From: Chloroflexota bacterium
GTDB lineage: Bacteria; Chloroflexota; Chloroflexia; Chloroflexales; Herpetosiphonaceae
Direction of reading: 5' to 3'
Assembly (NCBI GenBank): GCA_020161265.1
Contig: JAIUOC010000003.1
Location: forward strand, 299,024 to 363,023
DNA: 64,000 nucleotides
This document shows, piece by piece, positions 564-64,000 of the stretch. Numbering within the stretch: the first letter of the stretch is position 1; each line of letters starts with the position of its first letter. The notes beneath the pieces were generated by a model that did not search any database, was not told the DNA's origin, and saw nothing but the letters and a program-made list of their open reading frames with translations. The translations under genes were made by a program, and so were the position numbers.

Positions 564-928
564 CATTTGGTATAACCGATAATCGTTGGTGGGCCGTGGG
601 GTATGTTTGCTCCACGGCCTTTTTGTAGCACATAGCGATTGGGGATCGGTTGTCGGGGGTTGGGGATCGGTTATAAATGCTGGGGTATGCAGCTAGTAGT
701 TTGGGGATAGCAAGATAATCATCAAAATCTATGCTAATCTGTGGCTTAAAACAGCCCTTCGTGTAATTCGTGTAATTCGTGGCTCAATCGCTTTGCGGTT
801 TCATTCTTCGTGCGCTTCGTGTTCTTCTTGGTTTCAACATGCAGCTTTTATGGTTTGGTCAAAATCAATTTAGCGCCTCTGGGTTAAAATAGCTATTTGT
901 AATAATCTTGATGAATAGAGATCTGCAT

Positions 929-4972: not shown

Positions 4973-5394
4973 CGCTCAATTCCTTTCTGCTGCTTAGCAT
5001 AAACCCTATACTATGCTATAGAGTCAAGCCCAAGTTTTTATTAAAATCAAAAGGCAGAAGGCAAAAATCAAAAAGTAGCAACAGGAAATTGGAATGCAGC
5101 TGTAACGCAGAGGCGCAGAGGGAAAATATGAATGATGAATATTAAACCGCCAAGGGCATGAAGAACGCGAAATGAGGCTATAGGCTATGGACTATCGACA
5201 TTTCTTGGTATTCCAATGCTGTAAATCCAATAGCCAATAGTCAGTAGCCTGTGCTTTCCCTCTCATGGCGCGGTTGCATTTGCGTGGGCGAAAGATAAAG
5301 CCTATGATATCGAACGCCAATGGCAATTTGCCGATGACGAAGCACAGAGTCATGGCGATGCTGCTTCGACGCTGATGTGGTATGGAGGATGTTC

Positions 5395-12431: not shown

Positions 12432-13018
12432 GATTGGCTCTCCTCACGGGCAACCACCCGCCGACGGGTCAGCACGACTGTCCCGACTACTGCAATCAAG
12501 AGCAAAATTGAAATCACTTCAAAAGGCAAGAGATAGGTGCTGAAAAGTTTGGCGCTGATCGTGGTTGGTGCGCCAATGTTGGTTGCATCGGCCACCGGAG
12601 CATCGATTAATTTCGTGCCACGATAGGCCACATAGCCAATCTCGGCCAATAATGCGACACCCAAGACGAGGCCAGCCGGCTTTTGCCAGCCGATTTTCTC
12701 CTCGCCAAGCTCGGCATTTTCAGCGCCCAACAGCATGATCACGAACAGGAACAGCACCATAATCGCGCCAGCATAAACCGTCACTTGAACAGCACCGAGA
12801 AACGGCGCACGCAGCAAAAAATATAAAATGGCGACCGAGCAGAAATTCAAAATCAAAAACAGCGCACTATGCACTGCATTGCTGCTCAGCACCATTGCCA
12901 AGGCTGCCCCCACCGCCACAATGGCCGTGGTGATAAACAAAAATGTTTCCATGGACACTCCCAGATAAAGGATGAAGGATGAGGGATGAAATTCAAACCC
13001 CGTTGGCACGCCCTTCAC
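12428..13018 (-). CDS. nuoJ: NADH-quinone oxidoreductase subunit J
   Basis: 196-aa membrane protein whose end overlaps the nuoK start by 4 bp. Confidence 0.8.
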
Positions 13019-13131
13019 ACTTTGTACCGTTGGCTACCCTTAGCGATAAAGCAGAAGCTTGGGTGCTGAGCAATCAAATTCAGCCTGAACTAGCCCATCC
13101 TTCATACTTCATCCTTCATACTTCATACCTT

Positions 13132-13638: not shown

Positions 13639-13986
13639 TGGCGATTCCTTTCTCGGTGCGTGACTCCTATGGCGTTCACGCCAAAACCGCCACTATGCAT
13701 CAAGCGGCGGTGCAATGTCATTCGAATCGGTGCCGTCGCGGGCGCGTTTATTTTATCACAATCTCTTGATAAGCCAAACAGGGGGAATAAGGATGAAGGA
13801 TGAATTATGAGGGATGAAATTAAGAACATAGAACATAGGGCGATCGGCGTTTGGCTTTGGGCGATTGGCTATCGGAACGTTGTGTGGTATGACACTCATT
13901 CGCGATAGCCAATCGCCTATAGCCTATAGCCTTTTGTCACATCTTCGTGCGCTTCGTGGATCAAAATATCCCAAATCCTCGATGTT

Positions 13987-15340: not shown

Positions 15341-15416
15341 TCCCTGATAGCTCAGTTGGTAGAGCAATTGACTGTTAATCAATGGGTCCTAGGTTCGAGT
15401 CCTAGTCAGGGAGCCA
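15341..15416 (+). tRNA. tRNA-Asn (anticodon GTT)
   Basis: Cloverleaf read by hand: acceptor tccctga/tcaggga, D-arm gctcagttggtagagc, anticodon loop cuGUUaa, T-arm ggttcgagtcc, encoded CCA. Confidence 0.85.
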
Positions 15417-15436
15417 CTTCTTTTTACAATTGATAA

Positions 15437-15512
15437 TCCCTGATAGCTCAGTTGGTAGAGCGGTTGACTGTTAATCAGCATGTCCTAGGTTCGAGTCCTA
15501 GTCAGGGAGCCA
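15437..15512 (+). tRNA. tRNA-Asn (anticodon GTT), second tandem copy
   Basis: Near-identical to the first copy, differing only in the anticodon stem and variable loop. Encoded CCA. Confidence 0.85.
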
Positions 15513-29969: not shown

Positions 29970-30008
29970 AAAAAGCAGTCATAAAAAGCAGTCATAAAAA
30001 GCAGTCAT
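29970..30008 (+). repeat. 3 perfect tandem copies of the 13-mer aaaaagcagtcat abutting the ATG cluster of the STAND regulator gene
   Basis: Direct reading gives 29970-29982, 29983-29995 and 29996-30008, all identical. Confidence 0.6.
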
Positions 30009-30013
30009 ATGCA

Positions 30014-32819: not shown

Positions 32820-35800
32820 TTATCGATTAATCAGCGGCAGATAGATCGGCTGGCTTTGGTTGATCATAAGATTATCGAGCAGCCAGCCACGATCTGATCC
32901 GTCGCGGTCAACGGTCATGCGCAACCGTAAACGAATGGTTTGATTCTGAAATGAACGTAGGGAGATTCTGACTGGTTTCCAATGAGGAGTTGACCATTCA
33001 TCGCTGCTTGGGGTTGCTGGGCGTAGGCCATGTGCGCCGCCGCCAGTGAAATCGGCGATGATCTGCCAGGTTAGGCCATTATCGGTTGAAACTTCCACAC
33101 TCCCATGATCATCGCCTGCTGCGGTTCGGGCAAACACGTAATCGTGCTCGAAGGAAAGCACTGGATGCTGACAATTAGCTAGGTTAATTGGCTCGTGGAA
33201 GGTTAGGGTACTTGTCAGATATTGATTTGGTGCGACGGCTTGGGCATAGGCATGGCCCGGGCTATCATCAAGGGCAACCTCGCCACTCGCTAAGCGCGAT
33301 GTAGCCCAAGTTCCTTGAATTTGCCATTTGCCCAATTGGCTATTAAATGTTTCAGCAAAACATGCAGGTGTTGGTGGGTAAAGGGCGAGTGCTGGTGCTG
33401 GTACGCTTGACCCATCACCATTGGTTAAGCTCGTTCGGTAATAACCTGGGGCAAGTGCAGCGGTTAGGGTTATGCTGCCACTGCTGGAGTTATGCAATGT
33501 AACGCTTAAACTGATCGTGCTGGTTAGCGTTTGCAAGTGAAGTGTTGCTGGTGCCAGTAAGTTGTTGCCGCTTACCAGCAATGTGTTGGTAAGCCCACTG
33601 GTGATCATGGTTGGTGTTAAACTTTGAACGCTTGGCTGCGAATGCCCACCTATTAATGTATAGATGCCTGGCTTTGGCGCATGAGCCGCGGCAACATTAT
33701 AGGTTGTGTTCAAAACGGTCGATAAACGCTCCCAATAGGTTCCATTCCAAAAGCCAATCGCTAAATCTGGCTCTTCAACATTGGCTGTAATCAGATCATA
33801 ACCAAGATATTGAAAACTAACTGAGCCTGAAATTGGTTGGGTTTGTTGGGCGGTAACGAGTTGATAGCCTTGCCCCACGTTTACCACCCCTGCTGGTAAA
33901 GCCGGAAGTTCGGCCATCTCTTGAATCGCATAAAATTGGCCAACTTCAAAGGTCGCTTTGGTATAGAAGGTCATCTGTCCATCGGGAGATAGTAACGGTG
34001 CACCACCCAACCGATAGTAACCGCCACCACCGCGATAGTAACCGCCACCACCGCGATAGTAACCGCCACCACCGCGATAGTAGCCTGGGTTTCCGCCAAT
34101 TGAGTAGGCGATAAGTGTTTCGCGGCGTGGGTTTGTCTCACTTGCTGGCTCTTCAACCCATACTTGAATATGGCCACTCATCGAGGGATATTGGCTTACC
34201 AAGCTTCCACGGTAGCCATCGCCAAAATGCTCAAGCAGTACTGGTGAACCAGCCGATCCATCATCAGGAAAGAGCCGTGCTTGTAAACTTAAGCCTGGTT
34301 GAATTCCAGTTACCTGAAGTTTGAGGGTTGTGCTGGTAACTGGCGAGAGCGTTACGAGTGGTTTCCAAGCAGCATCATGCTTAAGCGTAATATATTGATC
34401 ATCGATGCTCAACACTTCACAACCAAAGTGTTGTGTGCCACGATCAAAAAGACAAAACCGATCGCCCGGCTGTGCCCCTCGGCCTAAGATGCGGTTTTGA
34501 TTGTTGACAGTACTGCCCAGAGGCATAATCGTATCGTCAGTTAGAGCTGGGGTCTGCTGGTTTGTAATCAAGAATCCGCGAGCTTTGGCTGAACTGGTTG
34601 TATTACCAGCATATTCTAAGTATAAGGTAGGATCAACCAAAGGAGTGGTAGGAGTCAAGGGGTCAACGATTTGCACATTCGTGAAGACGAAAGGCATTTG
34701 TTGTGGCCCAGCCAGCGGCATAGTCGGAGTTATCAGTGCCGGATACCAAAGCCGAAGTGTTTCCCATTCAGTTCGTTTTAACTCCTGCGCTGCGAGGGTT
34801 TCCTGACAGTGTGCTTGCCACACCTCAGGATCAAAGACAAATTCGGTATTTGTTGGAAGATACACATCACCCATCGCGCTTCCCGCGCATGTATCCACCG
34901 GAACCAAGAGCTGATCTGCTTGGATTCCAAGGTAAGTGTCTTCCATGAAAAATAAATAATGGCTTAATTCATGGGCAAGAATAACCGACCAATCAGTGCT
35001 AATATCTTCGCCAGGAATTCCATTGCGATTCCAGTGGGAACCAATATGCACTTGTCCTATATCGTAGATCACCTCAGGATGTTCAAGATCAAGGGTTTTG
35101 GTTAAGACGATTCCGCCCTCGCTGGCGAAAGGTCGGAGCCGATTTGTTGCATGGATCACAACATCGGCATAATTGAGTTGCTCTCCATTCTGGTAGACGC
35201 TTATTTTTCCTAAGGCTACCTGGCCATTAGTAAAGTCATAGAGATAGCGTGAAGCGCGATGGAGATCTGACTCAAGTTTTTGCAGGTAGGTGGGGGAGTG
35301 TGATGCATCCCATTCGAGCGCAATTTTCAAGTTAAAGAGCAATAATGGATGTTCTGGTCGCGCAATCAACTCTTGCGTGCCGGGCGTGGTGATCGTCCAA
35401 CCATCCAAGCCCATCTCAGTAGGAACCCCATTTGTATGATAAAGGCTGTAGGCATAGGTTGTTGTAATTGGCACAAGGGCGATTAAGCGATCATCTGGCC
35501 GTAATTCGCTTTGGCCTTGCAAGTAGCCTTGACCATCGGTAATAAATGGCGCACTGCCCTGACTTGCTGCCATAGGCCGCCCACCGCCGCTTTGACCTGC
35601 GCCTAGTCGGTAGACGATTGCTCCTGCCGCAGCGATTGGTGGTTGCTCGGCGGTGGCATGCAGCACCCGCACGCCTGTGCCACGCACTCGGAATGGAAAT
35701 GAGTTCGTTGTATAGGCTCCATAACGATAGCTACCAGCAGTACTATGCGCCTGAGGCAGTACACTAGGATACATTCGAAGCTGAACCGCCATTGTATCGT

Positions 35801-42810: not shown

Positions 42811-43413
42811 TTACTTATCGTTTTCAGCGACTTTGTTCCAATCCAACACTTCCCACCACGTTTTGATGTAGTCGGGGCGGCGGTTTTGGTAGCGCAAGTA
42901 GTAAGCGTGTTCCCAAACATCTAAGCCCAACAAGGGGGTTTGGCCTTCCATGACTGGTGAGTCTTGGTTGGCGGTGCTAGTTACGGCCAATTTACCTTCG
43001 CTGGTGCGCACCAACCAAGCCCAGCCTGAGCCGAAGCGAGTGGTTGCAGCTTTGGCAAATTGTTCCTTGAAGTCATCAAGTGAGCCAAAGGTCGCGTTGA
43101 TTTCATCGCCAAGTTTGCCGGTTGGTTCACCGCCGCCATTTGGGCTGAGAATGTTCCAGAACAAGCTGTGGTTGGCATGGCCACCGCCGTTATTGCGCAC
43201 AGCGGTGCGAATATCTTCGGGCAAACTGTTCAAATCGCTGATCAACTCGTGCAATGATTTGCTTTGCAATTCGGGATATTTTTCCAAGGCAGCGTTGAGG
43301 TTATTCACATAGGCAGCATGGTGCTTGCCATGGTGAATTTCCATGGTTTGCGCATCGATTGCTTTTTCTAAGGCATCGGTTGCATAGGGCAACGCTGGCA
43401 GTTCAAAAGCCAT
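42811..43413 (-). CDS. sodA: Superoxide dismutase [Mn/Fe]
   Basis: '[10 protein letters not shown]...[14 protein letters not shown]' and 'DVWEHAYYL'. Confidence 0.9.
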
Positions 43414-43693
43414 TGTATGGACTCCTTTTGATCTCAAGGATGCGACTTTGCACGCATCAACACACGGTTCCCACTTCTATTGTAGCAGAAGTTGGGCCAT
43501 GCTTGATGCACAATCTTGGGCACATTTGGAATCATGGGGATCGGGGATCGGTTGCTGGGGGTCAGGGATCAGAGATCAGGGATCAGAAATACTGAAACCG
43601 CGAAGAACGCGAAGATCGCGAAGGCTGGAGATCGGAAATCAAACAGCTTTAGGTTGATCAGGCAACCACTGCAAATCAAAAATTGAACTTTAT

Positions 43694-43751
43694 GCAGGGG
43701 GATGAAAACCCACTGCGTTTCCCTCCGGTGGAGGGACGGAAGGGTGGCGAA
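43694..43751 (+). repeat. Copy A of a conserved two-hairpin ~58-nt element (a possible structured RNA)
   Basis: Sequence gcagggggatgaaaacccactgcgtttccctccggtggagggacggaagggtggcgaa is matched at 63257-63314. Confidence 0.6.
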
Positions 43752-43862
43752 ACGATGAGTTCGTTCTCAAGCACCCAATTGGCTAAAATGTGTTAAGCTT
43801 AATCCCAACGATGATTAATCCCATGCAATCCCAATTGCTACCACAATAGATGTAGGAACTTC

Positions 43863-46388
43863 ATGAGCGAACAACGCCGTTTTTCCAAGCCCGAAGTGAT
43901 GAGTCCGGCGGGCTATTGGCCGCAGTTGCACGCCGCAATCGAAGCAGGTGCAGATGCGGTTTATTTTGGTTTGAAGCATTTTACCGCCCGTGCCAAGGTG
44001 GGTTTTACGCTCAGCGAGTTGCCCGACGTGATGCGTACCCTGCATCAACGTGGTGTGCGCGGCTTTGTGACCTTCAATACCTTGGTGTTCGAACACGAAT
44101 TGCGCGAAGCCACCCGCTCGTTGGCAGCGATTGCCGAGGCTGGAGCCGATGCGGTGATTGTGCAAGATATTGGCATCGCCCAGCTTGCCCGCCAAATCGC
44201 CCCCGAAATGGAAGTGCATGGCAGCACCCAAATGAGCATCACCAGCGCTGAAGGGGTTGACTTAGCGCGGCGGTTTGGAGCTAATCGGGTGGTTTTGGCC
44301 CGTGAATTATCGCTTGCTGAAATTGCGGCAATTCGCCAAGCCACCGATTGCGAGCTAGAAATGTTTGTCCATGGGGCGTTGTGTGTCTCATATTCTGGCC
44401 AATGTTTCTCCTCAGAAGCTTGGGGCGGGCGCAGTGCCAATCGTGGCCAATGTGCTCAAGCTTGTCGTTTGCCCTACCAATTGTTGGTTGATGGCAAACA
44501 TAAACCCTTGGCCGATGCCCGGTATTTGCTCTCGCCAGGCGATTTGTATGCTGTGCCCTTGATGCACGATATTATCAAATTGGGCATTTCGTCGCTGAAA
44601 ATCGAAGGCCGCTACAAAGATGCCGATTATGTGGCCTTGACTACCAGCGCCTATCGCAAGGCGGTTGATGAGGCTTGGGCTGGCTTGCCCTTGAGCATCA
44701 CGCCCGCCGAAGAGTTGCAATTAGAGCAAGTCTATTCGCGTGGCTTAGGCACATTTTTCATCGGCGGAACCAATCATCAAACCGTGGTCAATGGCCGTGC
44801 GCCGCGTCACCGTGGCGTATTAATCGGTATGGTCAGCGATATCTATGGCGAACGGATTGTGCTCAAGCCCCACGAAAATCATGCTATTGCCCCGCTCAAG
44901 GCTGGCGATGGCGTAGTGTTTGATGCCGCCAATTGGCGCAGCCCTGAAGAACGTGAAGAAGGTGGGCGAATTTATGGCATCGAAGCCTTGCCAACTGGCG
45001 AAATTGAGCTACGTTTCGGCCCGCAAGCGATCAAACCCAACCGCATTCGCATTGGCGATTTGATTTGGCGTAGCCACGACCCTGAGCTTGATCGCGCTGC
45101 TAAGCCGTTTTTAGAGGCCGCCGCGCCTGTCGCCAAACAACCTTTGCAGGTGCATGTTGTAGCCCACGAAGGCCAGCCTTTACAATTAACCTGGACGGTC
45201 AGCAATTATCCTCAATTCAGCGTAACCGTGCAATCGCCTGAGCCATTGCCATGCTCACAAAACCGCGCCTTGACCAATGAATTTCTGTTTGATCAAGCCA
45301 GTCGTTTGGGCAACACCGCCTACAGTTTGGCCGAAATGAGCGTCGATATTAGTGGCCAGCCGTTTGTGCCAAGTTCGTTGCTGAACAACCTGCGCCGCCA
45401 AGCAATCGAGCAACTTAGTGCGTTGCAAGCCGCCGCACCAACGCGCCAGATTCAAGCGCCACTTGAGGTTTTGGCCCAAGCGCAACAAGCGGTTCAAGTA
45501 GCACCAAGCCTCAGCAATGCTCCCCAATTGCATATTTTGGTGCGCACGCCTGAGCAATTGCAAGCTGCGATCGCCGCCAAACCAGCCAGCATCACCCTCG
45601 ATTATTTGGAATTGTATGGCTTGAAGCCAGCGGTTGAATTAGTTCAAGCTCATGGAATTACGGTGCGCGTGGCTAGCCCACGGGTGCTCAAACCTAGCGA
45701 GCAGCGGATTATTCACTTTTTGCTCAAGCTTGGCTGCGAAATTGTAGTCCGTTCAACGGGCTTGCTCGAAGCCTTGCGCCAAGAACAACACCCAGCCTTG
45801 ATTGGCGATTTCAGCCTGAATGCCGCCAATAGCATTACCGCCAACACCTTGCTCGAATTAGGCTTAGAGCGGATTACGCCGACCCACGATTTGAATGCGG
45901 CCCAAGTTGCGGCCTTGGCTGAGCAATTGGGTAGTGCAGCGGTTGAAGTGATCGCCTATCAACATTTGCCTGTATTTCATACCGAGCATTGCGTGTTTTG
46001 CCGTTTTCTCTCGAATGGCACAAGCTTCAAAGATTGCGGCCATCCCTGCGAGAAGCATCGGGTCGAGTTACGCGATCTGAATGGGCGGGCGCATCCAGTA
46101 ATGGCCGATGTTGGCTGTCGCAATACGGTTTTTGGGGCTGAAGCTCAAACGGCTGTGGAGCATCTTGATGCCTGGCGAGCCGCTGGCATTGTGCATTATC
46201 GCTTGGAATTTGTGCACGAAACTGCTGAACAAGTAGAGGCAATTATTGCCGCCTTTGATCGCACGTTGCAAGGCCAGCAACCAAGCAGTGTTTTGGCCGA
46301 GCAATTGCGCAAGGCAGCGCCGCAGGGCATCACCCAAGGCAGCTTGTTTATTCCCAACGATTATCTGCGCGTACCGTTGATGCAGTAG
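43863..46388 (+). CDS. U32 family peptidase (long form)
   Basis: N-terminal 'AGADAVYFGLKHFTAR' and 'EGRYKDADYV', with a conserved Cys cluster at the C-terminus. Confidence 0.8.
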   Translation: MSEQRRFSKPEVMSPAGYWPQLHAAIEAGADAVYFGLKHFTARAKVGFTLSELPDVMRTLHQRGVRGFVTFNTLVFEHELREATRSLAAIAEAGADAVIVQDIGIAQLARQIAPEMEVHGSTQMSITSAEGVDLARRFGANRVVLARELSLAEIAAIRQATDCELEMFVHGALCVSYSGQCFSSEAWGGRSANRGQCAQACRLPYQLLVDGKHKPLADARYLLSPGDLYAVPLMHDIIKLGISSLKIEGRYKDADYVALTTSAYRKAVDEAWAGLPLSITPAEELQLEQVYSRGLGTFFIGGTNHQTVVNGRAPRHRGVLIGMVSDIYGERIVLKPHENHAIAPLKAGDGVVFDAANWRSPEEREEGGRIYGIEALPTGEIELRFGPQAIKPNRIRIGDLIWRSHDPELDRAAKPFLEAAAPVAKQPLQVHVVAHEGQPLQLTWTVSNYPQFSVTVQSPEPLPCSQNRALTNEFLFDQASRLGNTAYSLAEMSVDISGQPFVPSSLLNNLRRQAIEQLSALQAAAPTRQIQAPLEVLAQAQQAVQVAPSLSNAPQLHILVRTPEQLQAAIAAKPASITLDYLELYGLKPAVELVQAHGITVRVASPRVLKPSEQRIIHFLLKLGCEIVVRSTGLLEALRQEQHPALIGDFSLNAANSITANTLLELGLERITPTHDLNAAQVAALAEQLGSAAVEVIAYQHLPVFHTEHCVFCRFLSNGTSFKDCGHPCEKHRVELRDLNGRAHPVMADVGCRNTVFGAEAQTAVEHLDAWRAAGIVHYRLEFVHETAEQVEAIIAAFDRTLQGQQPSSVLAEQLRKAAPQGITQGSLFIPNDYLRVPLMQ

Positions 46389-46416
46389 TGAGCAAGGGGT
46401 CAGGGGCTAGTTGTCA

Positions 46417-46457
46417 GGGGTCAGAAAAAGTAGAGCTAATTCTTAATTTCTGACCCC
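46417..46457. terminator. Bidirectional stem-loop between convergent genes
   Basis: ggggtcagaaa (46417-27) and tttctgacccc (46447-57) form a perfect 11-bp stem with a 19-nt loop. It lies between the U32 stop and the hydrolase stop. Confidence 0.5.
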
Positions 46458-47368: not shown

Positions 47369-48844
47369 CTACTCGATACTAAAAACCATTTCAACATCAC
47401 CAATCCGAATCCGGTCACCAGGCCGCAGATGGTGCGGTTGATAGGCAGTCATTGGCACGCCATTGATGCTTGTGCCATTGATGCTGCCCAAATCAATTAA
47501 TAAATGATGATCACCCTGTTGTTCGATCACGGCATGGCGGCGCGAGGCCACACCCCGATCATGCTCAGCCAAATCGATCTCAGGATGATGATTTTGCGCC
47601 GGATCACGCCGCCCAATTCGGCAAGGAAAGTGGGTTAATGCCAATTCCCACACAGCGCGGGGCGAAGTAATCACTAGCTTGGGCACAGCCCGTTTGATTG
47701 CCGCGCCACAACCAGCGCAAAACCGCGCATTAGGTTTATTCATGCGGCCACATTGATCGCAAATTGGGCCATTAGCCTGGGGCGGCGGCGACCAAGCTGG
47801 GGTTTGGACGGGCGGTGCCCACGATGGGGCTGGCTGTGGCACAGGTTGCGGCATTGGCTGTTGATATTGTGGCGGACTGGGATTGCCCCAAGCTGGCGCA
47901 GGGTTTGGGTTCGGATTACCCCAGGCTGGCGCAGGGTTTGGATTGGGATTATTGAAAACTGGTGCTGGCATCGACATCATGGTTGGATCATCGCGCTTAT
48001 CGGGCACAATCACCCCACGATCAACCGCCAACAATGCTTGCTCAAACGAAGCCATGGTCTGAAAGCGCTTCTCGCGATCCATTGCCATCGACCGAATAAT
48101 CACCTGCTCCATCTCTGGGGTAACCGATTGATTATGTTTGATCAGCGAGCCATCTTTGGGAGTTTGCAGCGGCACAGGTGGCAGGTTAGTCAACATATGC
48201 AGCAAGGTTGCGCCCAAGGCATAAATATCAGCCCGCGCATCAGTTTGGCCCTTGCCATATTGCTCAGGTGGCGCATAGCCAGCCGACCCCATAGCCACGG
48301 TATCTTTACTTTTATTGGTTTTGTAGGTTCGCGCCACGCCAAAATCGATCAGCTTAATAATGCCTTCAGGCGTGAGCATCACATTCGGCGGCTTCATATC
48401 ACGAAAAATAATTGGGGGATTTTGGCTATGCAAATAATTAAGCACACGAGCAATCTGCACGCCCCAATTCAGCACATCACGTTGAAAAAATGGCGCGTTC
48501 ATTTCACGCTGCTTATCTTCAAGCGTTTTGCCTTGGACAAACTCCATCACCAGCGTGGGGCGACCAGCCTGCTCAAATGAATCGACCACTTTGGGCAAGT
48601 TGGGATGATCGAGCGTTTGCAATAATTGCGCTTCTTGGTCAAAGAGCTTGCGATTTTCGGCAATTTCCTCGGGAGCGGCCTCGGCTGGTGGGCGCATCTC
48701 TTTAACCGCCCAGGTTGAGCCATCGCTGAGGCGCTCGCCACGATAGACCGCGCCCATGCCCCCGCGCCCGATGATGCCGAGAATCCGATATTGATCGTGT
48801 TGTCCTTGAAGGATCGTGCCATCAGGCAGCAAATCAGCAAACAC
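47369..48844 (-). CDS. Ser/Thr protein kinase with a Pro-rich repeat linker, a zinc ribbon and a C-terminal FHA domain
   Basis: Kinase motifs 'AVKEM', 'FRDMKPPNV' and 'DFG'. '(NPNPNPAPAWG)x2'. 'CDQCGR...CAGCG'. FHA-like C-terminus '...RRHAVIE...GSINGTSINGV'. Confidence 0.8.
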   Translation of the reverse strand: MFADLLPDGTILQGQHDQYRILGIIGRGGMGAVYRGERLSDGSTWAVKEMRPPAEAAPEEIAENRKLFDQEAQLLQTLDHPNLPKVVDSFEQAGRPTLVMEFVQGKTLEDKQREMNAPFFQRDVLNWGVQIARVLNYLHSQNPPIIFRDMKPPNVMLTPEGIIKLIDFGVARTYKTNKSKDTVAMGSAGYAPPEQYGKGQTDARADIYALGATLLHMLTNLPPVPLQTPKDGSLIKHNQSVTPEMEQVIIRSMAMDREKRFQTMASFEQALLAVDRGVIVPDKRDDPTMMSMPAPVFNNPNPNPAPAWGNPNPNPAPAWGNPSPPQYQQPMPQPVPQPAPSWAPPVQTPAWSPPPQANGPICDQCGRMNKPNARFCAGCGAAIKRAVPKLVITSPRAVWELALTHFPCRIGRRDPAQNHHPEIDLAEHDRGVASRRHAVIEQQGDHHLLIDLGSINGTSINGVPMTAYQPHHLRPGDRIRIGDVEMVFSIE

Positions 48845-60966: not shown

Positions 60967-62316
60967 TTAGCCTTTAGCCAATGCTTGGGCAGCAACCAAC
61001 AGTGGGTCCCACACCGATGAAAATGGGGGTGCATAACTCAGGTCTTGCCAAGCAAACTCATCTACCGTCATTCTTCCCGCGAGTGCCACCGCTACCACAT
61101 CAACCCGCTTTGCTACATCGTCGAAGCCAATAATTTGGCCACCCAACAATGTGCCGTCGGCTGCATCAGCAACCAACTTAACCGTTATTGGCCGAGCATT
61201 AGGGTAGTACCCCGCATGATCGGTTGAATGGATGATTTTGCTACGAACGTGGTAGCCATGGTGGAGAGCTTGCTCAACACTTAATCCAGTTGCGGCAATA
61301 TGTAAATCAGCAAATTTGGTGACTGCTGTGCCCACAACTCCGCGAAATGGGCGCTCATGGCCTGCGAGATAGGCTCCAAGCGTCCGACCTTGTTTATTGG
61401 CAGTCGTGCCCAGTGGTAAATACACGGGCTTATTGAGAATTCGATGATCAACGGTACTGCAATCGCCAGCAGCATACACCCTATCGACGCTAGTACGGCC
61501 TAATTGGTCGATTTTGATTGCGCCATGCTCGCCAAGCTCAGCGCCACAGCTTTGGGCCAATTCGCTATTTGGCTGCACTCCGGTGGCGATAATCACCAAT
61601 TCGGCGGGAATATCGCGACCGCCAGCAACCACATGAGTTACTCGATCGTGCTTGCCTTCAAGGCCTTCCAAGCCACAACCAAGCGCTAATTGCACGCCCG
61701 CAGCTTCAAGTCGGGTAATAATCTGGCTGCTCATATCGTGATCAAGTGAGCTTAACACGGTTTTGCTGCGATTGACCAACGTTACGCCAATCCCACGATC
61801 GAGCAAGGCCTCGGCCATTTCTAGCCCAATATAGCCAGCACCAACCACGACAGCATGCTTGGGTTGCTGTTCGCTGATGTAGGTTTGAATCGCCAAACCA
61901 TCATGCATTGAGCGTAACCGAAAGACCCCCTGTAGTTCAATCCCTCGTACTGGTGGACAATTGACTCTCGCGCCAGTTGCCAGCACCAAACGATCAAAAT
62001 GATCGTGGAACGTACTATTGTTAGCCAAATCGCGCACGGTCACCCGCCCCGCCGCTACATCAAGATCGATCACTTCATGGTCGGTTTTGACGGTTACGCC
62101 ATCGCGGGCAAATTGAGCTGGAGTACGGGCGATTAACGCCTGATAATCAGCAACTGCCCCGCTAATCAAATAGGGCAACCCACAAGCAGAGTAGGAAACA
62201 TGAGCTTCACGGCCATATACACAAATATCCAAATCGGGATTGGTGCGTTTGGCTTTGGCGGCAGCACTCGTTCCGGCGGCGACGGCTCCAATCACGATCA
62301 CCCGTTCGCTAGCCAT
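60967..62316 (-). CDS. FAD-dependent pyridine nucleotide-disulfide oxidoreductase (CoA-disulfide reductase / NADH oxidase family)
   Basis: 'VIVIGAVAAGTSAA' FAD motif. Single redox Cys in 'SYSACGLPY'. NAD motif 'AVVVGAGYIGLE'. Confidence 0.8.
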   Translation of the reverse strand: MASERVIVIGAVAAGTSAAAKAKRTNPDLDICVYGREAHVSYSACGLPYLISGAVADYQALIARTPAQFARDGVTVKTDHEVIDLDVAAGRVTVRDLANNSTFHDHFDRLVLATGARVNCPPVRGIELQGVFRLRSMHDGLAIQTYISEQQPKHAVVVGAGYIGLEMAEALLDRGIGVTLVNRSKTVLSSLDHDMSSQIITRLEAAGVQLALGCGLEGLEGKHDRVTHVVAGGRDIPAELVIIATGVQPNSELAQSCGAELGEHGAIKIDQLGRTSVDRVYAAGDCSTVDHRILNKPVYLPLGTTANKQGRTLGAYLAGHERPFRGVVGTAVTKFADLHIAATGLSVEQALHHGYHVRSKIIHSTDHAGYYPNARPITVKLVADAADGTLLGGQIIGFDDVAKRVDVVAVALAGRMTVDEFAWQDLSYAPPFSSVWDPLLVAAQALAKG

Positions 62317-62377
62317 TCCAAGCTCCTTTAGCTATGCTACTATTTGGACAGATTGTCACGAGCATGAGAGCTTAATT

Positions 62378-63151
62378 ATGCCACCAAGCCCTAGTAAGAA
62401 TCAACCACGTTTGCCGGCTCAACCAAATCGTTTGGGAGCTTGGTTGGTCTATCAGGCCTTGATCCGGCCTGCATTACGCAAAACCTTTGATCAAGTATTG
62501 CTGAATGTTGGGTCAACCGCTGACATTCTGCGCAGCCGCGAGCCAATTTTGGCCTATGTTACCCATACAAGTTGGTGGGATGGGCATCTGGCGTTCGAAT
62601 TATTTCGCACAGTCTACCCACGCCACCACTATTTAATGATGGAAGAAGCCCAGTTGGCCCGCTATTTCTTCTTTCGTTGGTGTGGCTGTTTCTCGGTTAA
62701 TCGCCAAGAACCACGCGAAGCCTTGCGCTCAATTCGCTACGCCAGCAGCCTGCTCCAACACAAACAATCTTTAGTTTGGATCTTTCCGCAGGGTCAGATT
62801 ATACCGCCAGATCGCCGTCCGCTCCAACTTTTTCGTGGGGTCGCCGATATCGCCACCCGCACCGGCAATTTGTGGTGCTTGCCAATCGCCTTGCGCTACG
62901 AATTTGCTGGCGAACAACGGCCAGTTGCCTTAATTCGCTGCGGCGAGCCAACATGGGTTGATGCAGATACCAGCCGCGAACAGCTGCAACCGCAATTAGC
63001 AATCAACCTAACCCGTGCCGCCGATCAACTACGCGATGAATGGAATCAGCAAGAGCTTGTTAATTTTCAGCCAATTTTGCAAGGCACAGCCTCGGTCAAT
63101 CGCCGTTTTGATCACATTTTAGGGCCAATTGTGCGCTGGTGGCAACAATAA
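62378..63151 (+). CDS. Lysophospholipid (1-acyl-glycerol-3-phosphate) acyltransferase family protein
   Basis: HX4D box 'HTSWWDGH'. Start set at 62378 to avoid overlap with the divergent gene. Confidence 0.65.
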   Translation: MPPSPSKNQPRLPAQPNRLGAWLVYQALIRPALRKTFDQVLLNVGSTADILRSREPILAYVTHTSWWDGHLAFELFRTVYPRHHYLMMEEAQLARYFFFRWCGCFSVNRQEPREALRSIRYASSLLQHKQSLVWIFPQGQIIPPDRRPLQLFRGVADIATRTGNLWCLPIALRYEFAGEQRPVALIRCGEPTWVDADTSREQLQPQLAINLTRAADQLRDEWNQQELVNFQPILQGTASVNRRFDHILGPIVRWWQQ

Positions 63152-63256
63152 CCAACATTTGGAGATCGGAACAAACGAAACCGCGAAGAGCACGAAGACC
63201 GCGAAGTATGAGATATTAGAAATACAAGAACAATCCACAAACTAAATATTTGGGGG

Positions 63257-63314
63257 TGCAGGGGGCTGAAAACCCCCTGCGTTTCCCTTCGGCGGAGGGA
63301 CGGAAGGGTGGCGA
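63257..63314 (+). repeat. Copy B of the conserved two-hairpin ~58-nt element
   Basis: gcagggggctgaaaaccccctgcgtttcccttcggcggagggacggaagggtggcgaa. Substitutions relative to copy A keep both stems paired. Confidence 0.6.
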
Positions 63315-63338
63315 AGCCAGATGAAAATCAGCAAAATA

Positions 63339-64000
63339 TTATTGAAAAACAGCTTTAATCAATTGTGGCAACAACTCATCAGCACTGCCCGCCAACGAAT
63401 AAGTTGCAATCCCTCGCAACGGAATATCAGGGTTAATTTCAATCACCGTTTTTTTGCGGCGCAAGGCTCGATGAGGCAACGAAGCAATTGGCTCAACAAT
63501 CGCCGATGTGCCAATTACCAAGGCCACGTCGCTGTTATCAAAGGCGTGCTTGGCCGCTTGCAATATGTCAGCATCCAACAATTCGCCAAACCAAACAATA
63601 TCAGGCCGTAATGGTGCGCCACAAGCCGGGCAAATTGGCTGCTCAGCATCCCAGGTTTCAACCAAATTGCCTTCTCGCGAACAGATTGTGCGAGCCAAAC
63701 TGCCATGCACCTCATAAACCTGGCCTGAGCCAGCCCGCTGATGCAAACTATCAATATTTTGGGTAAACAGCTTAAATTGCGTGATCAATTGCTCCAAATG
63801 CGCCAAGGCATAATGCCCAGCATTTGGTTGGGCTGCCTCACACTGGCGTTTCATGGCTTGATACACCTGAAAAACCCCAACTGGATCACGCTCAAAGCCC
63901 GCGAATGTCGCAACTTTATCAGGATCATAGGCCGTCCAACGGGCATCAGCGGCGGCACTACGATAGGTCGGAATTCCGCTGGGAGCTGAAATTCCCGATC
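63339..64000 (-). CDS. cobB: NAD-dependent protein deacylase (Sir2/CobB), 3' portion. The gene continues past the window end.
   Basis: 'FTQNIDSLHQRAG', 'VYEVHGS', 'CPACG' and 'RPDIVWFGE'. The upstream frame, still open at 64000, encodes 'SGIPTYRS'. Confidence 0.8.
   Translation of the reverse strand, partial: SGISAPSGIPTYRSAAADARWTAYDPDKVATFAGFERDPVGVFQVYQAMKRQCEAAQPNAGHYALAHLEQLITQFKLFTQNIDSLHQRAGSGQVYEVHGSLARTICSREGNLVETWDAEQPICPACGAPLRPDIVWFGELLDADILQAAKHAFDNSDVALVIGTSAIVEPIASLPHRALRRKKTVIEINPDIPLRGIATYSLAGSADELLPQLIKAVFQ

Follow-up and report, generated by a model that had tools for sequence, protein, structure and literature searches.

What is the 58-nt segment with two predicted hairpins that occurs at two loci of a 64,000-nt stretch of a Herpetosiphonaceae genome (contig JAIUOC010000003.1, positions 299,024 to 363,023; this whole stretch is called the window below)? 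A preliminary description, made from the letters of the window alone, had reported the segment as an element present twice and as a candidate small structured RNA or mobile mini-element. That there are two copies was borne out, as a degenerate 58-mer pattern matched the window exactly twice and gave 0 matches in 100 shuffles. The copies lie on the + strand at 43694-43751 (copy A) and at 63258-63315 (copy B, first placed at 63257-63314), and the alignment gives 54/58 identical positions, with 4 differences, rather than the 52/58 reported. Both copies terminate in an invariant ACGGAAGGGTGGCGAA, as had been described and as reading and alignment of both regions confirmed. "Present twice" understates a family of well over 100 copies in 8 genomes. 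Taken together, the results below suggest, with a probability that we put at about 0.58, that the segments are copies of a high-copy, non-coding, modular and non-autonomous interspersed repeat that is specific to Herpetosiphon/Herpetosiphonaceae and has a BOX/BIME/ERIC-like organisation. The first proposal thus holds as far as a repeated, structured unit is concerned, and the data do not choose between its two options.

A scan of a genome collection with the 20-mer GGAGGGACGGAAGGGTGGCG as the query found at least 120 loci, and all matches listed come from 8 Herpetosiphon or Herpetosiphonaceae genomes, some of them metagenome-assembled genomes (MAGs). An nhmmer profile and a covariance model, applied to these loci plus the window, raised the number to at least 158 copies, some of which lack the exact 20-mer; the search for more copies in relatives that had been proposed was therefore positive. 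Among the matches listed, the loci are distributed as follows.

H. aurantiacus DSM 785: 15 loci
H. giganteus: 20 loci
H. geysericola: 31 loci
H. llansteffanensis: 4 loci
Herpetosiphon sp. NSE202: 12 loci
Chloroflexia MAG: 28 loci
Herpetosiphonaceae MAG MGR_bin20: 9 loci
Herpetosiphonaceae MAG F20_78: 1 locus

The window comes from a close relative of DSM 785, whose locus L011 is orthologous to copy A and identical to it in the flanks. No copies were found in the plasmid, phage and viral-contig collections that were scanned. A metagenome scan with the G-C variant of hairpin 2 returned 15 loci, all of the same family and mostly from one sample. Searches of the literature on Herpetosiphon repeats and small RNAs, on sequence strings of the element and on intergenic hairpin repeats of Chloroflexi found no description of the family, and the two-hairpin repeat is apparently undescribed. 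A "mobile promoter" reported for H. aurantiacus is shared with distant phyla (PMC3488235), and it is therefore probably a different element.

The consensus of the core is AAcAATCCAC-(~12 A/T-rich nt)-TTAGGGGGT-GCAGGGGG-ATGAAAA-CCCCCTGC-GTT-TCCCTCC-GGC-GGAGGGA-CGGAAGGGTGGCGAA. Its G-rich strand folds into two stem-loops, which are linked by GUU and precede a conserved purine-rich tail. Written as RNA, (AATCCAC-N12)-TTAGGGGGT precedes hairpin 1, GCAGGGGG-AUGAAAA-CCCCCUGC, which is followed by GUU, by hairpin 2, UCCCUCC-GGC-GGAGGGA, and by the tail CGGAAGGGUGGCGAA. The invariant unit is 66 nt long, or ~86-90 nt with the AATCCAC extension. The 58 nt first reported thus hold as a repeated unit, whereas the conserved unit extends further 5', through TTAGGGGGT and usually AATCCAC. 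The parts of the two window copies are given below.

43665-43693, + strand: 5' part of the copy A core, AAATCAAAAATTGAACTTTA, from the alignment with the DSM 785 ortholog L011
43694-43716, + strand: copy A hairpin 1, GCAGGGGG-ATGAAAA-CCCACTGC, an 8-bp stem with 1 G.A mismatch and a 7-nt loop, from the sequence and family covariation
43720-43736, + strand: copy A hairpin 2, TCCCTCC-GGT-GGAGGGA, from the sequence and family covariation
43737-43751, + strand: copy A 3' tail CGGAAGGGTGGCGAA, nearly invariant, which marks the sharp 3' edge of the family, from column conservation
63224-63257, + strand: 5' part of the copy B core, AACAATCCAC, an A/T-rich spacer and TTTGGGGGT, from the covariance model and alignments
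63258-63280, + strand: copy B hairpin 1, GCAGGGGG-CTGAAAA-CCCCCTGC, a perfect 8-bp stem, from the sequence and family covariation
63284-63300, + strand: copy B hairpin 2, TCCCTTC-GGC-GGAGGGA, with one U.G pair, from the sequence and family covariation
63301-63315, + strand: copy B 3' tail CGGAAGGGTGGCGAA, whose end is 23 nt from the stop codon (63339) of a convergent sirtuin-like gene

The covariance model matched copy A at 43665-43761 with 89 bits and copy B at 63224-63325 with 111.5 bits. Compared with its DSM 785 ortholog, copy A has a 5-nt deletion that removed the GGGGG run. The change in copy A hairpin 1 had been read as G.U-compatible; it is a C to A change that yields a G.A mismatch (GCAGGGGG...CCCACTGC), and the same mismatch is present in the DSM 785 ortholog. 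The C to T change in hairpin 2 does keep a U.G pair, as reported (CCCTCC/GGAGGG compared with CCCTTC/GGAGGG).

The boundaries of the core were defined from the whole family. When the copies are anchored on the 20-mer, column conservation climbs ~65-85 nt upstream and is at background level directly after GGCGAA. Likewise, H. geysericola copies at different loci share a stretch of only 64-88 nt that always stops at GGCGAA, and the bimodal shared lengths correspond to two upstream subfamilies, AATATTAG and GTCCTTTAG, with no common -10-like box. The first ~8 nt 3' of GGCGAA are weakly conserved (nCnATgA), and the 5' junction reads TTAG, TTTG or TGAG, then GGGGG. The ends of the core, GGGGGTGC... 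and ...GGTGGCGAA, are not mutual reverse complements, so that terminal inverted repeats are lacking and a miniature inverted-repeat transposable element was rejected. Coding potential was rejected as well, given that the loop ATG varies (ATG, CTG, ATT) and that there are 1-nt indels and stem-compensatory substitutions. The unpaired tail and the hairpin 1 loop (N-U-N-A-A-A-R) are kept at the sequence level.

Pairing statistics were obtained from a MAFFT alignment of 127 distinct copies, with column shuffles as the control. Hairpin 1 was paired in 96.4% and hairpin 2 in 99.0%, while sliding the partner columns by 1-3 positions lowered pairing to 52-61%. There were 49 double-change cells compared to 13.1 ± 2.7 in the shuffles, and none of 500 shuffles reached 49. 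At the third pair of hairpin 1, we counted AU 80 times, UG 26, CG 5, GU 3 and UA 3, along with 8 A.G intermediates. Hairpin 2 has an alternative form, UCCCGCC-UUGA-GGCGGGA or CCCGC-UGG-CGGG, in which a U-A pair is swapped for G-C and the loops differ. The preliminary description had named randomly broken stems in additional copies as the outcome that would speak against it; the stems of the 127 copies, which stay 96-99% paired, are not broken at random, and that objection does not arise. The wobbles are asymmetric: G.U cells number 60 on the written strand, and A.C cells, which would be wobbles on the opposite strand, number 15. This means that one strand matters. That the GCUGGGGG...CCCCCGGC form is abundant can be understood only if the strand that folds is the G-rich one, either as RNA or as single-stranded DNA (ssDNA).

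Further pairings were also considered. An extension of hairpin 1, in which the 5' G-run pairs with GUUUCC, is 98% paired but G.U-rich, with changes on one side only. A long-range CCAC/GUGG closing helix was rejected, as it has no covariation and 38 of the 127 copies are unpaired at one position. A third helix like that of wcaG RNA (CCCUCC/GAAGGG) was rejected too, being 82% paired with no double changes and broken in 9 variants that keep hairpin 2.

Two variants of the core were noted in passing. In two Herpetosiphonaceae MAGs (L049:434-560, L080:7515-7630, L099:439-553), ~15-30 nt are inserted between hairpins 1 and 2, and the insert contains a small GCCC-AGR-GGGC hairpin, which suggests that the linker tolerates an extra stem-loop. 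Copies whose hairpin 2 is of the GGCGGG form (L122-L136, L007:5229-5315, L083:2961-3047, L104:4301-4387) make up a subfamily that ends in GGGTGGTGATCA(CC), not in GGGTGGCGAA; this ending creates a GGTGATCACC palindrome with a GATC site. GATC recurs in two of the modules described below, the heptamers and GGAGATCGGAA. The sequence GGUGAUC is complementary to the 3' end of 16S rRNA.

The core is accompanied by other short repeats, which in the window are the following; TRF stands for Tandem Repeats Finder.

43536-43586, + strand: heptamer tandem array, GGGGATC/GGGATCA, ~7 units, G-rich (TRF)
43599-43623, + strand: CGCGAAG three times with a 9-nt period, upstream of copy A (pattern search, TRF)
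43627-43637, + strand: GGAGATCGGAA word at copy A, 3' of the CGCGAAG array
63161-63171, + strand: GGAGATCGGAA word at copy B, 5' of the CRCGAAG array
63182-63206, + strand: CGCGAAG/CACGAAG/CGCGAAG with a 9-nt period, at copy B (pattern search, TRF)

The triple CRCGAAG arrays upstream of both copies had been noticed before and were recovered at 43599-43623 and 63182-63206 with a 9-nt period; this array pattern matched the window 9 times compared with 0.03 expected. Across the family, at least two CGCGAAG-type words occur within 150 nt upstream on the same strand in ~39% of full copies; the corresponding values are 0.7% for the opposite strand and 9% for other intergenic DNA. A ggagatcgga-type word (GGAGATCGGAA) does lie at each copy, as reported, and in the window solely there, but it is not significant alone, since 19 of 100 shuffles gave at least 2 matches. 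The word stands on opposite sides of the array in copies A and B, so the order of the modules is not fixed. In addition, arrays of CRCGAAG/CACGAAT with a 9-nt period occur without a nearby core at 757-830 (-) and 13943-13958 (-) of the window, which indicates that the modules are independent repeats in their own right. The composite element that had been proposed therefore applies to a subset (the ~39% of full copies), and its modules are independent and shuffled rather than fixed in order. The intergenic region of the 757-830 array also contains, at 640-700, C-rich heptamers (CCGATCCCCA...) that are the GGGGATC module in reverse.

Copies tend to be arranged as direct arrays. All 23 pairs less than 300 nt apart are direct repeats and none is inverted (0/23), and arrays of 2-3 units with a period of ~150-360 nt run from a core through G-rich heptamers, CGCGAAG 9-mers and a spacer to the next core. 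The heptamer module follows the core at three loci (L118, L093 and L110) and often precedes or follows cores in the arrays of other genomes. Comparison of copy A with its DSM 785 ortholog shows how these regions change. The flanks are identical, while substitutions and indels abound in the composite region, the heptamer array is hypervariable and the downstream module is swapped; the hairpins and the 3' tail (43694-43751) differ by a single loop substitution, with the GGGGG run missing just 5' of them. Three other genomes have an expanded version of the copy B locus, with two copies in at least one of them, and copy number at this site differs between species. Orthologous cores average ~95% identity and their flanks ~79% and ~86%, which are rough values as some flanks include coding sequence. 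Taken together, these observations point to duplication, recombination and gene conversion among copies, together with constraint on the core or its homogenisation.

We next consider the genes around the copies. Of 158 copies, 152 are intergenic, though ~83% of the sampled DNA is coding. Their orientation relative to the neighbouring genes is near random, with 46 same/same, 36 opposite/opposite, 29 divergent and 20 convergent contexts, and the copies on the DSM 785 chromosome show no orientation polarity. On one 3.7-Mb MAG contig (CAVYBW010000001.1, loci L020...L085), the copies are on the + strand up to 0.83 Mb, on the - strand from 0.94 to 1.65 Mb and then mostly on the + strand. All-against-all clustering of 882 predicted neighbour proteins found no protein family that recurs beside the copies and no transposase-like cluster; the clusters, whose names were assigned by eye and not with Pfam, are only of ordinary families (for example, histidine kinases, ABC ATPases and reductases).

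In the window, copy A is flanked by a superoxide-dismutase-like gene (42811-43437, -) and a peptidase U32 gene (43863-46388, +), and lies 112 nt upstream of the latter in sense orientation. Copy B occupies nearly the entire gap between the convergent genes at 62240-63151 (+) and 63339-63866 (-). The setting of copy A is thus of the promoter type and that of copy B of the terminator type. No sigma-70-like promoter or hairpin-plus-U-tract terminator was found in or next to either window core on either strand, and a sigma-70-like site upstream of 12 of 140 copies is at background (~7% of shuffled sequences). A public Logan contig with the peptidase U32 gene starts inside copy A hairpin 1 (L001:1-60, equal to 43698-43757 of the window), and an assembly break at a repeated k-mer would account for this start.

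These features are those of modular intergenic repeats. Like BOX of Streptococcus pneumoniae, ERIC/IRU and the Correia elements of Neisseria, the Herpetosiphon repeat is high-copy (~100 or more), intergenic, non-coding, transposase-free and lineage-specific, with stable stem-loops and modules that are variable in number and order. The three families have no sequence similarity to the Herpetosiphon core, which differs further by its two dissimilar hairpins with a single-stranded tail, its lack of terminal inverted repeats and its adjacent copies that are always direct. The likeness rests on organisation, and mobility is a property that we only infer for the Herpetosiphon repeat. REP/BIME elements, which are associated with RAYT transposases, are also extragenic, high-copy hairpin units in mosaics, with strand-specific recognition and with proposed roles in mRNA stability and termination. 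By definition, a REP consists of one imperfect palindrome of 20-40 bp that has a GTAG or CGTC tag at one of its ends (PMC3733652). Inverted pairs (REPINs, BIMEs) are frequent among REPs. Membership of REP/BIME was rejected because the 66-nt unit has two different hairpins, the GTAG/CGTC tag is absent and 0 of 23 pairs are inverted. The STRR heptamer repeats and the small dispersed repeats of cyanobacteria are likewise intergenic heptanucleotide tandems and nested small repeats, in a different phylum and with different sequences; to our knowledge, the two-hairpin core has no counterpart among them.

According to the modular-repeat reading, the element would have no coding capacity of its own and would multiply chiefly through local duplication in direct orientation and through recombination or gene conversion among the copies, while dispersal to new intergenic sites, if it occurs, would need a factor supplied in trans. 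The uniformity of the core could result from constraint on the hairpins and tail, for example as a binding site of a trans-acting protein, or from mutual homogenisation of copies. Upon read-through from a neighbouring gene, the two G+C-rich hairpins would form in the RNA, and the likeliest effect of such co-transcribed hairpins would be on mRNA 3'-end formation or stability. An effect of this kind, or service as a binding site of a trans-acting factor, seems to us the likeliest role of the repeat, whose function, mobility and transcription we infer from the features above.

Several points weigh against this reading. No clean pair of filled and empty sites, target duplication or terminal inverted repeat was found, and mobility thus stays unproven; presence/absence differences exist (L051 compared with L035, L053 compared with L023), with surrounding intergenic DNA that is too diverged to place the junctions. 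The counts of covariation are inflated by subfamily ancestry, and hairpin 2 may have changed from UA to GC only once. The gene calls are home-made, with open reading frames (ORFs) scored by codon usage. In about 45% of the contexts that face a gene (134 of 294 flank counts), the element is antisense to its neighbour; given the strand asymmetry, a purely co-transcribed RNA role therefore cannot cover all copies. Finally, the tail and the hairpin 1 loop are very strongly conserved in more than 100 copies from several species and MAGs. Passive selfish DNA is not expected to be that uniform, and the uniformity points to a sequence-specific partner, which also fits an RNA gene.

An RNA gene is the main alternative. 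It is possible, though doubtful, that the copies are a multi-copy family of small structured RNA genes, in which each core is transcribed alone from the G-rich strand; with the same reserve, such RNAs might act in trans or within a ribonucleoprotein and use the conserved loop and purine tail as contact surfaces. The compensatory changes in both hairpins, the four-to-one excess of G.U over A.C cells in favour of one strand, the sequence conservation of the unpaired segments and the independence from the orientation of neighbouring genes all agree with this proposal. Against it stand the want of a conserved promoter (12 of 140 copies compared to ~7% of shuffles), of a sigma-70-like site in or beside the two window cores and of a -10-like box common to the AATATTAG and GTCCTTTAG subfamilies, as well as the lack of a terminator after the sharp 3' edge. 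Tandem arrays of identical units and mosaic shuffling of modules are also more typical of repeat DNA.

Known RNA families were compared as well. Only two tRNAs of the whole window reach Rfam gathering thresholds, and permissive scans of both copies gave only sub-threshold matches. wcaG RNA (RF01761) was rejected at 23.1 bits against a gathering threshold of 42 bits, and Clostridiales-2 RNA (RF02937) at 24 bits against 58.6, with 9 nt in place of the central 34 model positions. Both sub-threshold alignments span 63244-63322 (+) of the window and have several conserved, unpaired blocks in common with the element, in matching order. For wcaG, this shared series runs from GGUGC through a G/C hairpin, GUUUC and another hairpin to GUGGCGA; its context is different, since wcaG is found in the 5' untranslated regions (UTRs) of marine cyanophages. 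Clostridiales-2 shares AUAAAAUAGGGGGUGCAGGGGG-loop-CCCCUGC and is found in different taxa (Clostridiales); its resemblance includes an A/U-rich stretch before GGGGGUGCAGGGGG that could be a -10 box and start site, which would favour an RNA gene. The two resemblances may reflect a distant relationship or a coincidence of G-rich motifs, and we treat them as a lead only. Chloroflexi-1 (RF01698), a multi-copy hairpin motif with no assigned function, gave no match to either copy at E<=10. It belongs to the same phylum as the Herpetosiphon repeat and differs in genus and sequence, its motif being confined to Chloroflexus aggregans, phylum Chloroflexi (PMC2864571). A tRNA, a tmRNA or a tRNA-derived element was rejected, as ARAGORN and Rfam detect only two tRNA-Asn genes (15341-15512).

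A broader version of the RNA proposal is likewise tentative. The core could conceivably be an unrecognised class of multi-copy structured non-coding RNA that is specific to Herpetosiphonaceae, perhaps distantly related to wcaG/Clostridiales-2, and that is transcribed from the G-rich strand at more than 100 loci. On that speculative view, a dedicated protein or the ribosome might bind the invariant U-turn-like loop and the Shine-Dalgarno-like tail (GGAGGG...GGAAGGGUGG), and the RNA might, no less speculatively, serve as a genome-wide regulator or sponge at the RNA level rather than being selfish DNA. With an identical 20-mer in at least 120 places in 8 genomes, and with compensatory changes and strand-specific wobbles, the sequence is unusually uniform across species, and one possible explanation is a trans-acting partner. 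The core would then, provided that its conservation has a functional cause, represent a new structured RNA or a new binding site for a protein, with genome-wide regulatory reach. As a plain repeat family, it would be useful for annotating and assembling Herpetosiphon genomes, since assemblies can break within copies, and possibly as a strain-typing marker. It would also mark intergenic rearrangement hotspots in a predatory filamentous Chloroflexi lineage whose non-coding genome is hardly studied.

The strand preference could also arise in DNA. However, it is unlikely that the repeat is an ssDNA hairpin element mobilised by a trans-encoded HUH/Y1 enzyme, of the REP/RAYT type or the PATE type derived from IS200/IS605, and equally unlikely that hairpins 1 and 2 are left-end and right-end recognition structures on the top strand. 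The strand-specific hairpins that tolerate G.T wobbles, the absence of terminal inverted repeats, the sharp 3' boundary at a fixed 16 nt past hairpin 2, the T-rich and target-motif-like left junction (TTTA, ATTA or TTGA before GGGGG) and the extragenic, high-copy distribution would suit such an element. PATEs have similar subterminal hairpins at their two ends on one strand and insert 3' of a fixed tetranucleotide. The two hairpins of the core are dissimilar, whereas the ends of IS200/IS605 elements resemble each other, and conservation extends past the putative left end into the AATCCAC block upstream. Moreover, no RAYT gene or Y1/RAYT-like family was found next to the copies in 120 loci of 8 kb (~1 Mb sampled), the GTAG or CGTC tag is absent, inverted pairs were never seen (0/23), and the orientation bias expected under lagging-strand targeting does not appear in DSM 785.

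A direct role in the expression of the adjacent gene, as a cis-regulatory leader (riboswitch or attenuator) or an intrinsic terminator, is very unlikely for the family as a whole. Individual loci do invite it: copy A lies upstream of and in sense with the peptidase U32 gene, the 3' end of the element is a median 59 nt from the stop of a downstream gene on the opposite strand, and there is the sub-threshold resemblance to the wcaG riboswitch candidate. At one orthologous gene 3' end, H. llansteffanensis (L053:3380-3560) has a canonical terminator-like hairpin with a T-run, and at the corresponding H. geysericola site (L023:2440-2560) the repeat core stands in the hairpin's place, antisense to the gene. 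This replacement hints at a role at 3' ends, yet 29 copies are purely divergent. All four gene contexts occur, including the 29 divergent and 36 fully antisense ones, and this mixture largely refutes a leader or terminator as a general explanation. A leader was rejected as there is no consistent sense 5' UTR position and the neighbouring genes are mutually unrelated, an intrinsic terminator because no terminator-like site or U-tract occurs within the core on either strand, and the wcaG score is below threshold, with its third helix contradicted by variants.

It is most improbable that the core is an orphan guide-RNA scaffold (omega RNA or reRNA of the TnpB/IscB type) with the variable sequence past its 3' edge as the guide, because the abrupt passage from a conserved structured part to variable sequence is offset by the absence of a recurring TnpB- or IscB-like neighbour, the short length of ~66-90 nt, the same module standing as the downstream "guide" of every unit in tandem arrays and the weak conservation (nCnATgA) of the first ~8 nt after GGCGAA.

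Other repeats were noted in the window. Heptanucleotide tandem repeats of many sequences, reminiscent of the STRR repeats of cyanobacteria, are abundant at its intergenic sites (TRF), with the following examples.

2024-2056: heptanucleotide repeat
2143-2172: heptanucleotide repeat
5043-5075: heptanucleotide repeat
12964-12990: heptanucleotide repeat
13096-13131: heptanucleotide repeat
13789-13838: heptanucleotide repeat
13905-13932: heptanucleotide repeat
46395-46424: heptanucleotide repeat

Three further tandem repeats, perfect or nearly so, lie at 34012-34082 (21-nt period, score 142), 29970-30009 (13-nt period, score 80) and 47880-47951 (33-nt period, score 116), the last of them inside a predicted ORF. 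The tRNA-Asn (GTT) genes at 15341-15413 and 15437-15509 (+) stand in tandem as a 96-nt direct duplication.

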